DNA of 35,158 nucleotides from a virus (lineage: Duplodnaviria > Heunggongvirae > Uroviricota > Caudoviricetes). The position numbers were made by a program, and so were the translations under genes. Positions 20,960 through 25,333 of the stretch are shown here, one piece after another (the stretch's first letter is position 1; every line of letters starts with the position of its first letter). The DNA lies in the IMG/VR virus record IMGVR_UViG_3300000176_000003, positions 64,001-99,158 of that record. One strand, 5' to 3'. Below the pieces are notes generated by a model. The model saw only the letters and a list, made by a program, of their open reading frames with translations. It was not told the DNA's origin and did not search any database.

Positions 20960-21951
20960 CTATCACAATTTTCTTCGTCAGTGTCACCTTTCGCCAGTTC
21001 TTCTACCCTCATTTCACCAGCACCATCATTCGTATTATTATAATAAAGCGTCTTAATACCATACTTATATGCCATCAAAATATGCTTTAACATTTCCGAT
21101 AATGGAATCTTTTCATCAGGATAGAACTTTGGATTATAAGAAGTATTAGTAGAAATAGATTGGTCAATCCACTTTTGTAATACAGCCATAATCTTTAGAT
21201 ATCCTTCTGGTGAAGATTGGTCCCACAGAAGTTCATACTTATTTTTAAGTTTGCGCACTTCGGGAACAACTTGCTTTAATACACCTTCACGAGAACTCTT
21301 AATCGACACTAAAGCACGCGGAGGTTCAATTCCATTTGTAGAATTAGACACTTGAGCAGAAGTTTCTGCTGGCATTAGAGCCATTAGAGTAGAGTTACGA
21401 ATGCCGTATAGATCAGCTTCTTCACGAAGAAGATTCCAGTCCATGGACACAGGACGCGAAGTTAATTCATCAACCTCCTTCTTATATGTATCTATAGGAA
21501 ATTGGCCATGCCCATACTTAGTTTCATACCACTTATCACAGGCTCCCTTTTCTTTGGCTAGATCAATAGAAGCTTTAATTAGATAATAAGACCAAGCTTC
21601 TGTATATTGGTCAATTAAATCTAGATTGGGATTAGTATAGGTCATATCGTTCTTAGCCATCCAATATGCTAGATTGATAATACCAATACCTAAAGGGCGA
21701 CGATTCATTGTAGAAAGTTGTGCAGCAAGAACAGGGTAACTCTGATAATCAAGTAGAGCATCAAGAGCGCGTACTGCTAGAGTACAGGGCTTTTCAAAAT
21801 CAGATGTCTTTTTAATTTTACCCCAATTTATCGCACTCAAAGTGCATAAGCTAATCTCAGATTTACAATCCGATTCAAATATATCAGTCACATATACATG
21901 ATCTGAATCATCATGATCAATATTATCAACAATTTCGTATTTAAAATTCAT
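20947..21951 (-). CDS. nrdA: RNR alpha subunit fragment c (C-terminal) with an acidic N-terminal tail
   Basis: EISLCTLSAIN (C462-equivalent), RRPLGIG, MPAETSAQ, DQSIS, KTLYY and terminal CDSC. Confidence 0.93.
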   Translation of the reverse strand: MNFKYEIVDNIDHDDSDHVYVTDIFESDCKSEISLCTLSAINWGKIKKTSDFEKPCTLAVRALDALLDYQSYPVLAAQLSTMNRRPLGIGIINLAYWMAKNDMTYTNPNLDLIDQYTEAWSYYLIKASIDLAKEKGACDKWYETKYGHGQFPIDTYKKEVDELTSRPVSMDWNLLREEADLYGIRNSTLMALMPAETSAQVSNSTNGIEPPRALVSIKSSREGVLKQVVPEVRKLKNKYELLWDQSSPEGYLKIMAVLQKWIDQSISTNTSYNPKFYPDEKIPLSEMLKHILMAYKYGIKTLYYNNTNDGAGEMRVEELAKGDTDEENCDSCTI

Positions 21952-22543
21952 TATATTTCCTTATATGTTTAGTGAAATTTCCTAAATCCCATTCTTTGTG
22001 ACAACACACACAACATATTTTTTTACCCTGTAAATGAGATGTTCCATTTGGTGCTTTTTTGAGATTATATTTGCCTCGTTTTTTATTTAATTTAGATTTT
22101 CTCATTTTTTCTTTAGTTTTATCAGAAATGTGAATAACTCCACGCAAACCTTTATTCCAAGGAGTCTTTCCTTTCTTACTTAATGAAAGTTTTTTTCTAT
22201 GTTCTATTGTTTGAGGTCTTTTAGGTATACCTTTTTGTGTTTTGCTAATTTTATTTTTATGTTCTTCACTTAATCCCATTTTAGATGGGTTGTTTAGTTT
22301 CATTCTATTAGATGTATTTAAAGGGTGTTCTTTTGATTGCCAATAATGATCATTATGCTCAATTTTATTTTTTTGTGCTTTAGAAAGGGTTTCTCTTACT
22401 TCTAACGATCTAATTTTTCCTTTATTGCTTTTAGATATTTTATCTGCGGTGGAAGAGCCTTTAACAATTCGTCCTAAAGAGGGCGAGATTTTATTTACAA
22501 CGGCTTTGCTATTATTCCAAACTTCCCAATCATCTTTATACAT
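21941..22543 (-). CDS. NUMOD3-like DNA-binding repeat protein; probable homing endonuclease remnant with no recognisable catalytic domain
   Basis: Repeated H..E...KIS...KG motifs (EEHKNKISKTQKG, EHRKKLSLSKKGKTPWNKG). No GIY-YIG or HNH motif, and the in-frame upstream sequence hits TAG after ~24 codons. Confidence 0.7.
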   Translation of the reverse strand: MYKDDWEVWNNSKAVVNKISPSLGRIVKGSSTADKISKSNKGKIRSLEVRETLSKAQKNKIEHNDHYWQSKEHPLNTSNRMKLNNPSKMGLSEEHKNKISKTQKGIPKRPQTIEHRKKLSLSKKGKTPWNKGLRGVIHISDKTKEKMRKSKLNKKRGKYNLKKAPNGTSHLQGKKICCVCCHKEWDLGNFTKHIRKYNEF

Positions 22544-22559
22544 TAGTTTAGTATTAATA

Positions 22560-23555
22560 TCAGATTCGTATTTTTTTGCTTTTAATTGGGGTATTGGGAT
22601 TTGATTTTTTCCATTCTAAATACTTTTTATATTCTTCTTTAGTCAGTTTCATTACTTTAACTATTGGACTACCGTCTTTCAGATCATTTAATGGCTTAGT
22701 TGGAAGGGTAATTTCGGCGCAAAGATTTGATTGGCGAATTGGTGCGACTTCAGATAAAAATGAACCGTGATCATTACAATGATCCACATTCATTAGATAT
22801 ACACGTCCAGTATCCTTCCGTTCTTGAACAAATGATGAGAACATGTCAATTGCGGGTACTTGCTTTTTTCGCAGCTTTGGGTTGCGTTCTGCGCGCTCAT
22901 ATAATTCTCTAAATTTATTTGAGTCTACAAAGAATGCTTCATAGAGTTCTGGTACGTCATGGGGACTAAAGAGTGTGATATTTCCACCATTAATAAGTCG
23001 CTCATACATCACCTTATTGAATTGTACACCATAATCTAGATGTCGAATCCGGTTATCTTCAGTACCTTTATTATTTTTTAGGACTAAAAGTTCCTCCGCT
23101 TCCAAGTGCCAGATTGGGTAATATAATGTAGCCGCTCCTCCACGGACCCCCCCTTGAGAATTGTGAGTAAGAACCATTTCTGATTCTGGAGAATTTGCAG
23201 CAAAAAAAGTGTGTGTGTCTTCTACAGTAATATCAATATAATTAATTGAAGTATTTCCTTTAGATACACTAATAATTTTAGTATGATTATTATCTGTTAA
23301 GATTTTATCAGAAAAAAGTAAATTATCTGGCAATACTGTAAATTGCATATTGTCTTTTTCAATCATTATTGGGTGATTTTTTGAACAATTTAATTCAGTT
23401 TTATTGTCAAAAATAAGAGTTCTTTGATCATCTATGCAAACTTCAGTTTCCCAAATGTCAGTTACAGTTTTAAAAACAACATTTTTGTTGGCATCTAAAG
23501 TTTTAATTTTCATACCAACTACCAAATCTTTTAGTTGAATTTTTTTAGTTTTCAA
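22560..23555 (-). CDS. nrdA: RNR alpha subunit fragment b: IntC + central extein + basic tail
   Basis: TTG start with AAGGA RBS. The extein runs SQGGVRGGAATLY...SNLCAEITLPTKPL (N437/C439/E441-equivalents). Confidence 0.92.
   Translation of the reverse strand: MKTKKIQLKDLVVGMKIKTLDANKNVVFKTVTDIWETEVCIDDQRTLIFDNKTELNCSKNHPIMIEKDNMQFTVLPDNLLFSDKILTDNNHTKIISVSKGNTSINYIDITVEDTHTFFAANSPESEMVLTHNSQGGVRGGAATLYYPIWHLEAEELLVLKNNKGTEDNRIRHLDYGVQFNKVMYERLINGGNITLFSPHDVPELYEAFFVDSNKFRELYERAERNPKLRKKQVPAIDMFSSFVQERKDTGRVYLMNVDHCNDHGSFLSEVAPIRQSNLCAEITLPTKPLNDLKDGSPIVKVMKLTKEEYKKYLEWKKSNPNTPIKSKKIRI
23160..23555 (-). mobile_element. NrdA split intein C-half (132 aa), +1 Ser
   Basis: It starts with the second half of block A (KIQLKDLVVGMKIKT) and contains block B LNCSKNHP, block F YIDITVE and THN|S. 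Confidence 0.88.
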
Positions 23556-24378
23556 TTTTATATTCCTTGATTTGCGGCTTATCCCAATTATGATATTGTA
23601 TCATATGTTTACTAAAATTACCAAGATTATATTTTTTATTGTTATTACAATCAAAAGGACAAGCTCTATATTTATTTTTATCATTCATCGCACAATCAAC
23701 ACCATACTTTTCTATGTTTGTTTTTTTGCTTTTAAAATTTCTGTCTGTCCAATCTTTTTCTTCCATAACTTTTTTATGTGTTTCTTTTGTTTTTTTATCA
23801 AACATCATATTTGTTACCCCATGTTTATCAAACATAACTTCTGATAATTTTTTTGGGTTTTTAAATGGGTTGTCTGTACCATATATTGTTTCTATAGAAT
23901 TTTGTCTTGGAGTTTTTACTATATCTAAATCTAATGTATGGTGTTTTCCATATTTTTTTATATTTGTTTTATATATTTTATCTTTTATTATTTTTGATCC
24001 TGATCCCCTTGAACCATATTTTTCTATTAATTTTGTATTTACTTTTTCTTGCACTTTATCAAATTCAAAAGGAAATGGTCCTTCTATATTTAATGGAACC
24101 ATATTATTATTCCATCTATTTAAATATTTTTTATTGTTTGGTATGTTTAATTTTTTAAGAACTTTGGTTTCCCATAATAATGCTGAATTCTTATCTTTAA
24201 AAACTTTTCTAATTTCTATTAGATTTGGTTCTCCATGTTTTTCAATAAACAATTTTACATATTTTGAAGATGACATATAGGTACTGCCAATGTCTTCTAA
24301 TTTTGCTTTTTTTGAATACCTAACTCCATAATAATATTTGTCTTGTTGTGTCCATCCTAGTAAATAAGTATAATACAT
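23545..24378 (-). CDS. GIY-YIG-like homing endonuclease between the NrdA intein halves
   Basis: YTYLLGW...YYGVR...YMSSSK...WETKVL...LN N-domain and repeated KTNIxKYG motifs. Very AT-rich. Confidence 0.8.
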   Translation of the reverse strand: MYYTYLLGWTQQDKYYYGVRYSKKAKLEDIGSTYMSSSKYVKLFIEKHGEPNLIEIRKVFKDKNSALLWETKVLKKLNIPNNKKYLNRWNNNMVPLNIEGPFPFEFDKVQEKVNTKLIEKYGSRGSGSKIIKDKIYKTNIKKYGKHHTLDLDIVKTPRQNSIETIYGTDNPFKNPKKLSEVMFDKHGVTNMMFDKKTKETHKKVMEEKDWTDRNFKSKKTNIEKYGVDCAMNDKNKYRACPFDCNNNKKYNLGNFSKHMIQYHNWDKPQIKEYKIEN

Positions 24379-24396
24379 ATTTTTCTCCTTTATACT

Positions 24397-24404
24397 TATT
24401 TATA
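24397..24404 (-). promoter_or_regulatory. Late promoter of the intervening endonuclease
   Basis: TATAAATA followed by the AAGGAG RBS and ATG 24378. Confidence 0.75.
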
Positions 24405-24410
24405 GTTTTC

Positions 24411-24428
24411 TCTAACGCCACCCTGGCT
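24411..24428 (-). repeat. Out-of-frame synonymous copy of the C-extein start (SQGGVR)
   Basis: AGC CAG GGT GGC GTT AGA overlaps the IntN stop codon. The real extein reads TCT CAA GGG GGG GTC CGT. Confidence 0.75.
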
Positions 24429-25333
24429 TATTCCTCAATAACTTCGACCCAGGTTTCTGGAGTAAGACAACACGATTTAACAGCACTTTGAAAATGTTTA
24501 TAAAAAGGTATAACTCCAGTATGACTAGCGTCACCATTACGAATGGGACTGCCAATAGCCCTAATACGACCAGCACCAATACCAATCCCAGCCTTTTGAC
24601 TAACATACTTAACGACTGCTGCAGATGTTGCATTGATGGAATCGAGTGAGTCATCAGTTTCGATAAGGACACATGAGCTAAACTGCCTTTGAGGCGTGCG
24701 AACTCCAGCCATAATAGGAGTAGGAAGGCTAATATCAAAAGTGCTAATGGCATCATAAAATTCCTTTACCCATTTAAACCGATCTGTTGTGTATTTTGAA
24801 AATAGAGTCATTGCGATAAGAATGAATGACATTTGTGGTGTTTCATAGAACTTGCCCGTTACGCGGTTCTTAACAAGATACTTACCGCGAAGTTGTTCCA
24901 TTGCCGCATAAGTCAGCAATTCGTCCCGAGAATGATCAATCAATGTGTCAGCAAACTTCCATTCGTCTGCAGTATATGCATCGAGTAGCTGACGATCATA
25001 ATAACCTTCCTTTACTACATGTACGACATGAGTATATAGATTATCAGGAGTAAACCTACCATAAACTTCCTTACGAAGATTATAATTGATTAGGCGTCCC
25101 GCAACATATTGATAGTTTGGATGTTCTTCAGAAATCAATTCGGCAGTAGCCTTAATTAGAGTTTCTTGAATATCGGTTGACTTAATATTATTATAAAACT
25201 GAATCTGTGATTTAATTTCAATTTCAGATACAGATACTCCAGATAGACCTTCACATGCTTGTTCAACTACCTTATGGAACTTGTTTAGATTTAACGGTTC
25301 TTTTGTTCCGTTGCGCTTAGTTACATTAATCAT
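24428..25333 (-). CDS. nrdA: RNR alpha subunit fragment a (ATP cone, C225-equivalent) + IntN
   Basis: VTKRNG.KE ATP cone, ETPQ, SLPTPIMAG, QFSSCVLI and GIGIG motifs. Confidence 0.95.
   Translation of the reverse strand: MINVTKRNGTKEPLNLNKFHKVVEQACEGLSGVSVSEIEIKSQIQFYNNIKSTDIQETLIKATAELISEEHPNYQYVAGRLINYNLRKEVYGRFTPDNLYTHVVHVVKEGYYDRQLLDAYTADEWKFADTLIDHSRDELLTYAAMEQLRGKYLVKNRVTGKFYETPQMSFILIAMTLFSKYTTDRFKWVKEFYDAISTFDISLPTPIMAGVRTPQRQFSSCVLIETDDSLDSINATSAAVVKYVSQKAGIGIGAGRIRAIGSPIRNGDASHTGVIPFYKHFQSAVKSCCLTPETWVEVIEE
24431..24469 (-). mobile_element. NrdA split intein N-half, 13 aa (CLTPETWVEVIEE)
   Basis: It follows KSC of the conserved KSC|SQGGVRGG site, has a block A-like CL.PET.V, and is followed by TAA. 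Confidence 0.85.

Follow-up and report, generated by a model that had tools for sequence, protein, structure and literature searches.

Why does a short copy of nrdA coding sequence stand, out of frame, in the non-coding spacer ahead of a nuclease gene? The question is raised by a stretch of 35,158 nucleotides (hereafter the window), the final 35 kb of a 99-kb uncultured-virus record (IMGVR_UViG_3300000176_000003), in which an nrdA gene is interrupted by a free-standing nuclease gene lying between two predicted intein halves, IntN and IntC. An earlier note on this DNA had pointed out, between the IntN stop codon and the late promoter of the nuclease, a hidden copy of the six residues (SQGGVR) that follow the intein, and had offered two readings of it: the fossil of an older allele, or a retained mimic of the homing site that serves as an autorepression operator, as for the GIY-YIG enzyme I-TevI. 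On balance we favour the second, in which the mimic would be bound by the nuclease and would repress its transcription. The features on which the argument turns, which like all the genes concerned lie on the minus strand, are the following.

24411..24428, minus strand: non-coding mimic of the nrdA C-extein target, AGCCAGGGTGGCGTTAGA, with SQGGVR in the +2 frame
24410..24425, minus strand: conserved core of the mimic, CAGGGTGGCGTTAGAG
24428..24430, minus strand: IntN stop codon, TAA
24397..24404, minus strand: predicted late promoter octamer of the T4 type, TATAAATA, which follows the mimic after 6 nt
23136..23159, minus strand: true target SQGGVRGG, in which SQGGVR (TCT CAA GGG GGG GTC CGT) takes up 23142..23159
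23545..24378, minus strand: free-standing open reading frame (ORF) of 277 aa between nrdA fragments a and b, a predicted homing endonuclease (GIY-YIG fold at the N terminus, then a helical DUF7487 region, and a Cys/His motif in the C-terminal part)

Read along the minus strand, the spacer runs TAA-GCCAGGGTGGCGTTAGA-GAAAAC-TATAAATA-AGTATAAAGGAGAAAAAT-ATG, with the first base of the nuclease ATG at 24378. The mimic reads AGC CAG GGT GGC GTT AGA and its first base is the last A of the IntN TAA, so that the earlier description of an SQGGVR sequence starting within the stop codon and out of frame (+2) was borne out by the minus-strand reading. The coordinates also agree with the arrangement that had been described, KSC followed by 41 nt and then SQGGVR (KSC ends at 24470 and the mimic runs from 24428), with the end of the mimic 6 nt before the octamer. 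Mimic and true site use different codons at six of six positions, again as claimed, and are identical at 9/18 nt.

A copy of this length does not arise by accident here. A search that allowed up to three mismatches found AGCCAGGGTGGCGTTAGA at a single place in the window and at a single place in the 99-kb record, none of 100 shuffles contained it, and a six-frame reading gave SQGGVR at the mimic and the true site only. At the base composition of the window, the expected chance count is 5e-7 in the 49-nt spacer and about 4e-4 per strand over the whole window. Because the 18-mer is unique, absent from the shuffles and expected so rarely in the spacer, chance is excluded as its source.

To score target-likeness, we used a weight matrix trained solely on the sites of 70 further loci in which nrdA is intein-less, as a sample of the natural target. 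The window mimic scored 21.4 bits over 15 nt and 24.0 bits over 18 nt, and none of 3960 null windows reached its 15-nt score (null mean of -9). In the true site of the window (23142..23159) the two glycine codons are GGG GGG, of which the first is used by 0/70 and the second by 3/70 of the intein-less alleles.

The conservation of the mimic was then followed in 15 distinct lineages that have a nuclease ortholog at the same split-intein position. We observed an nrdA-like Q-G-G-V/I-R-G-G copy in the nuclease leader of 14 of them, namely all 13 lineages examined first and L188, the nuclease orthologs of these carriers being 35-79% identical pairwise and 51% on average. Their leaders scored 3.9-31.7 bits with a 21-nt matrix, for a null mean of -21 and a standard deviation of 6.5. 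The earlier note had asked for the conservation of the 18-mer in related loci, and it is conserved there with one qualification: the core, Q-G-G-V/I-R-G(-G), is kept, while the Ser codon is unconserved and the exact six-residue match is confined to the lineage of the window. Three of the leaders read as follows.

L084: CAAGGTGGCGTTCGAGGAACT, then TATAAATA
L179: CAAGGCGGTGTTAGAGGGGGA, then GG and CATAAATA
L082: CAGGGTGGAGTGTGTGGTTG, then TATAAATA

The copy goes with one nuclease family. Upstream of the nucleases of other families at the same split point (L002, L003, L005, L007, L010, L011) no mimic was found, with scores of -12 to -24 bits, and the leaders of distant SegE-like homologs in other genomic contexts scored at background. 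No second SQGG[VIL]R was present in the loci where the intein is contiguous or otherwise split (L002-L005, L007-L011). The sole ortholog that has no mimic, that of L187 (region L187:1400-1520), also has no late-promoter octamer, and its spacer after the N-half stop is 10 nt long. The L187 nuclease is the most divergent ortholog, with 341 aa.

The pattern of conservation is that of codons, in DNA that is not read as codons. The nine invariant positions of the element, C..GG.GG..T..G.G, all fall at codon positions 1 or 2, and its information content has a 3-nt period, with 1.53 bits at codon positions 1 and 2 versus 0.58 bits at position 3. The element can be written, free positions included, as C A R G G n G G n R T n n G n G G. 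Free in it are the Ser codon and the first Arg base, just those that vary in real nrdA alleles (AGY/TCN; AGA/CGN). Mean pairwise identity over the 18-nt core is 71%, versus 33% at the four-fold degenerate sites of the nuclease gene. Since the latter are saturated, a neutral remnant would be erased over this divergence, which argues that the element is under purifying selection at the DNA level. Homing nucleases have been described to tolerate wobble changes in their target and not to tolerate non-synonymous ones (PMC3159444), and the constraint pattern of the mimic is this same tolerance pattern.

The frame of the element relative to the IntN ORF varies by lineage: it is in frame in L177, in another frame in L090, and after a TGA in L082. 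The hidden frame contains a TGA in L095 and L176, and no start codon precedes the element. A translated or recoded product, made by frameshift, bypass or read-through, was considered and is ruled out by the variable frame, the TGA stops, the inversion seen in L180 and the lack of a start codon or slippery site. In L180 the entire 21-nt element is inverted, scoring 30 bits when the other strand is read, and still adjoins TATAAATA; the clade of L087 and L092 has it on the downstream side, 2 nt past the octamer. This inverted copy and this downstream copy point to an element that acts as double-stranded DNA. Scans of viral contigs for the element followed by the octamer gave the known L094 contig and one unrelated coding match only, and the inverted arrangement was not found among these contigs. 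A looser pattern, octamer then element, gave mostly an unrelated prophage repeat and chance matches; alone, this loose pattern is not diagnostic. Altogether, the part of the earlier note that saw a retained homing-site mimic stands: it is found in 14 of 15 lineages, is absent from other families, bears the signs of selection on DNA, and almost always abuts the octamer.

The octamer TATAAATA occurs 11 times in the window versus 5.4 expected, its strand follows the local gene direction, and it or a one-base variant is conserved in the relatives, which suggests that it acts as a promoter. The end of the element lies 0-6 nt upstream of it in ten lineages and 14 nt upstream in L095. The leader of the nuclease also folds into a predicted structure.

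24361..24402, minus strand: RNA hairpin, with a 5' arm at 24390..24402 that starts inside the octamer and a 3' arm at 24361..24373 (nuclease codons 2-6)

Within its loop are the AAGGAG ribosome-binding site (24385..24390) and the ATG (24376..24378), and its fold energy is -16.3 kcal/mol (z = -3.3, with 0/200 shuffles as good). Compensatory changes were found in L082 (GTG/CAC) and L177 (AACATA/TATGTT); in L095 the place is taken by another hairpin, of 14 bp. A transcript that starts a few bases past the octamer would have no 5' arm of the hairpin, and the hairpin probably limits translation of the nuclease to late transcripts. The window hairpin matches the regulatory hairpins described for the nucleases of fractured genes, which, with that of mobE, follow a logic of late-only translation according to the relevant passages of PMC2677866.

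The 277-aa nuclease matches DUF7487 only in Pfam, the Pfam GIY-YIG models staying below significance for this subfamily, and the sequence profile of the family had no significant match among solved structures, so a fold comparison was needed. In an AlphaFold model (pLDDT 80), the best solved-structure match of residues 1-94 was the I-TevI catalytic domain, with a Z score of 8.1 and a root-mean-square deviation of 2.6 A over 84 residues, and the next matches were other GIY-YIG nucleases. Y5, Y16, Y17, G18 and R20 are nearly invariant in the family, and E70 and N87 are invariant. From this model, the protein is predicted to be a modular GIY-YIG enzyme with an I-TevI-type catalytic fold, and its helical C-terminal part (DUF7487 and the Cys/His motif) is presumed to bind DNA. 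Distant homologs carry the Pfam domain SegE_GIY-YIG. There are about 20 orthologs at 40-58% identity, and all those with a readable locus lie between a short IntN and the IntC of nrdA. As to how relatives were found, megablast of a phage genome collection gave no close relatives and a distant search gave uninterrupted nrdA genes only. A single-protein search of viral contigs found no relatives of the nuclease, an alignment-based scan of viral contigs gave six loci, and a metagenome scan gave distant DUF7487 proteins only.

The best explanation of these observations, judged by the comparison of loci, would be that the element belongs to the nuclease cassette and copies the nrdA Q-G-G-V/I-R-G-G codons located just downstream of the intein insertion point. 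For a homing nuclease lodged at this site, these codons are where the target would naturally be, and its recognition site is assumed to be there. An operator would then work as follows. Early on, read-through transcripts from nrdA-a would hold the nuclease start in the hairpin and little nuclease would be made; late, with transcription started at TATAAATA, the transcripts would be without the 5' arm and would let the nuclease be translated. The DNA-binding region of the nuclease would recognise the mimic beside the promoter as it would nrdA, and, the flanks being other than those of nrdA, the nuclease would be bound there without productive cleavage. Once bound, it would hinder further late transcription, an autorepression in the style of I-TevI. 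Binding, non-cleavage and repression are all proposed by analogy with that enzyme. The joint absence of mimic and promoter in L187 may be taken as an indirect hint of repression.

Several points weigh against this operator reading. The copy of the window is degenerate after the Arg codon, with GAA AAC in place of GGN GGN. The element adjoins the octamer and never overlaps it, and both distance and side vary. Its G-rich core, AAGGNGG, resembles a ribosome-binding sequence, which would allow a role in RNA in the lineages with the direct orientation. Lastly, the true site of the phage itself (23136..23159) would be bound too, so that uses other than repression are conceivable. Beyond the window, the more general proposal is that target mimicry is an ancient, heritable module of the free-standing nuclease cassette rather than something peculiar to the T4 intron enzymes, in which a copy of the target is bound for self-control, the C-extein side is what the enzyme reads, and the conservation pattern gives the recognition code; to us the chances of its being right and of its being wrong look evenly balanced.

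The same target-like, family-specific conservation at the DNA level would fit a binding site for the nuclease that has another role: a tether to the donor genome, an aid to donor-recipient pairing in homing, a decoy sparing the resident nrdA, or a cis site for moving the cassette. Such roles would suit an element whose position relative to the octamer is not strictly fixed and a resident true site that is intact in every carrier. However, a transcriptional role accounts better for the co-loss of element and promoter in L187 and for an element that in most lineages sits right against the octamer, and to our knowledge there is no precedent for a non-repression role of such a site, an alternative that we hold to be unlikely. 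One may also think of the transcript, in which the element is included when read-through occurs. A ribosome-binding-like G-tract past the nrdA-a stop could hold terminating ribosomes or tune the translation of the nuclease or of nrdA-b, while the inverted, C-rich copy could mask a ribosome-binding site. The core does contain AAGG(N)GG (AAGGAGG in L177), and in the predicted fold of L180 the inverted copy pairs with GGAGGTG, the ribosome-binding site of that locus. Yet the invariant positions run 10 nt past the ribosome-binding-like part and the codon structure of nrdA extends over 18-21 nt, a start codon at the right spacing is missing, and the window element has no significant RNA structure (z = 0.09, 24370..24430). 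Moreover, two opposite functions would be required of direct and inverted copies, all of which makes a role in RNA distinctly improbable.

Two further accounts ask for no function. An idle element could be kept nrdA-like by short patches of gene conversion that recur, with the true sites of its own or of co-infecting genomes as donors; its wobble-type variation indeed mirrors that of nrdA alleles, and the window copy is up to 16/18 identical to intein-less ones, such as that of L030. It is merely 9/18 identical to the true site of its own genome, though, and among the copies there is CTA for Gln and TGT, TGA or AGC for Arg, none of which was seen in nrdA. With an inverted copy in existence and a homology of only about 20 bp, we give gene conversion very little weight. 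Hardly any credence can be given, likewise, to a neutral fossil, left by the insertion, duplication or deletion that formed the split or by an earlier home of the nuclease inside nrdA. An out-of-frame, non-coding sequence at the left edge of the inserted cassette is what a fossil would look like, and the element may plausibly come from a real nrdA target; such an ancient origin is even likely. But the element is conserved across lineages in which synonymous sites are saturated, is specific to one nuclease family, and has no look-alike at the split point of the relatives with a contiguous intein. The fossil of the earlier note, an earlier allele of this very phage that would record a duplication and deletion, finds no support as a recent event: the element predates the divergence of nucleases that are about 50% identical, over which neutral DNA would be randomised, and it travels with the cassette in variable frame, position and orientation.

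As to the locus around the element, nrdA is in three pieces, fragments a, b and c, as given by the ORF list and Pfam.

24428..25333, minus strand: nrdA fragment a, with the ATP-cone, the N-terminal domain and the start of the barrel domain (ORF list, Pfam)
24431..24469, minus strand: 13-residue IntN, CLTPETWVEVIEE, at the 3' end of fragment a after KSC (which ends at 24470)
22560..23555, minus strand: IntC (132 aa, 23160..23555) fused to nrdA fragment b, with a TTG start

The upstream ORF thus ends with KSC, CLTPETWVEVIEE and the stop (AAA TCG TGT for KSC, then TGT CTT ... GAG GAA TAA on the minus strand), and the downstream ORF starts with IntC, M..KTKKIQ...VLTHN, which is followed by SQGGVRGGAAT. 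The TTG start of fragment b overlaps the end of the nuclease ORF by 11 nt (23545..23555). By its sequence, the locus would qualify as a fractured gene, with a predicted split intein and a nuclease between its halves. Its insertion point, KSC/SQGG (slashes mark intein junctions), is at what we take to be the equivalent of E. coli C225. The IntN of the relatives shares the motif C[LV]TP[DE]TWVE[VI], and about 100 proteins share an IntC fused to NrdA-b that begins M(V)KTKKIQIKDL... and ends ...THN/SQGG. The same split point was found in about 100 environmental homologs (P0002-P0099), whose N-halves usually have a short acidic tail.

The intein of other loci is contiguous (L004, L008, L009), split by a different GIY-YIG gene (L002, L005, L010, L011), where CATAAATA lies within a strong hairpin that hides the ribosome-binding site, or split by other inserts (L003, L007). 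Invasion by the nuclease at a look-alike site within the intein was considered and set aside, as nothing target-like is present at the split point in the contiguous inteins of L004 and L008, whose only good matches are the true sites. The contiguous intein of L004 keeps an internal Met (…VEVLKMVKTKK…), as if this were a split form re-fused after loss of the nuclease gene. In L094, L177 and L179 the intein is placed one codon earlier (KS/C…HN/CSQGG or CNQGG) than in the window (KSC/C…HN/SQGG), with the same spliced product. In eight homologs (P0011, P0012, P0015, P0021, P0048, P0082, P0085, P0090) the extein goes on for just eight residues before the next junction, SQGG(I or V)RNA/C…, and the protein stops about 60 residues further on, which suggests a second, split intein eight codons past the first.

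Downstream of fragment b comes a NUMOD3-containing ORF and then fragment c. This b/c break of the window (21941..22560, minus strand) holds the NUMOD3 protein and no intein, whereas L082, L084 and L086 have a second split intein there, at the thiyl-radical cysteine (SNLC/C…HN/CE), with a nuclease recognised by the Pfam GIY-YIG models between its halves. The same region of nrdA is thus broken in two different ways in related phages. No mimic was evident, by eye only, upstream of this second nuclease. In the window, both nrdA-interrupting ORFs end with a similar Cys-rich …LGNF(S/T)KH… sequence (23560..23640 and 21960..22040, minus strand) and each shares its last 11 nt with the nrdA fragment that follows; the common end and overlap hint at a shared 3' module that would supply a restart signal.

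If the operator reading is true, target mimicry as a means of autorepression is no longer limited to three T4 enzymes encoded in introns, of which just one is proven, and reaches the free-standing nucleases of split inteins in environmental phages. It would also mean that the DNA specificity of a nuclease can be read from comparative sequence alone, here as the recognition code of the uncharacterised SegE-like family, with the prediction of an 18-21 bp site with defined critical bases; a non-coding element with codon-like periodicity is an unusually clean signature of protein contacts. It would further clarify how such cassettes limit the damage to an essential ribonucleotide reductase gene and yet spread. 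For models in which nucleases invade inteins, it would argue that the leader, with its mimic, late promoter and hairpin, moves as one unit with the nuclease gene.

Target-like sequences beside nuclease genes have been discussed before. Loizos, Tillier and Belfort (1994) reportedly described intron sequences that resemble the exon homing site and took them as the trace of nuclease-gene invasion. Their case and ours have in common a target-like sequence beside a nuclease ORF in a mobile element; their argument is for an origin, not for a maintained function, whereas the window element is conserved and the relatives with a contiguous intein have no look-alike at the invasion point.

The closest comparison is with I-TevI of the T4 td intron, whose operator was described by Edgell et al. 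2004, as reviewed in the pertinent passages of PMC2988022. According to these, the operator overlaps a late promoter and has 15/20 identity to the homing site, I-TevI binds it as well as the homing site and cuts it about 100-fold less, and autorepression was shown (PMC2988022). Both systems have a GIY-YIG nuclease, a target-like sequence at its own T4-type late promoter upstream of the ORF, and a hairpin restricting translation to late transcripts, the roles of promoter and hairpin being predicted ones in the window. Unlike I-TevI, which is encoded inside a group I intron, the window nuclease is free-standing between split-intein halves and belongs to the SegE-like/DUF7487 family, sharing with I-TevI the catalytic fold only. 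The window mimic copies the C-extein side only and abuts the octamer rather than overlapping it, and the support for it is comparative (14 lineages, a 3-nt periodicity, one inverted copy), not biochemical.

Fractured genes, in which split inteins have an intervening free-standing nuclease gene, were described by Dassa et al. 2009 (PMC2677866). In the passages considered here, these share with the window an operon made of IntN, nuclease and IntC, a hairpin ahead of the nuclease that includes a late-promoter octamer, and a nuclease stop that overlaps the start of the downstream fragment. The NrdA loci described there are split at the thiyl-radical cysteine and not, as in the window, at KSC/SQGG, and the window IntN, unlike theirs, is of 13 residues only; no target-site mimic was found in the same passages of PMC2677866. 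Another homing nuclease gene within a split phage nrdA is mobE of Aeromonas phage Aeh1, which according to parts of PMC2677866 and PMC2988022 likewise has a late promoter and a hairpin that sequesters the ribosome-binding site. It differs in encoding an HNH enzyme and in having no intein, and those parts of the two papers contain no target mimic; the b/c break of the window, with its NUMOD3 protein, is closer to the mobE case than the a/b break. Text searches of the literature brought up no earlier account of a target mimic next to a free-standing nuclease that lies in a split intein. The kind of mechanism proposed here is known, while what appears to be new is the setting in which it occurs, the family of the nuclease, a codon periodicity in DNA that is non-coding, and the inversion of one copy.

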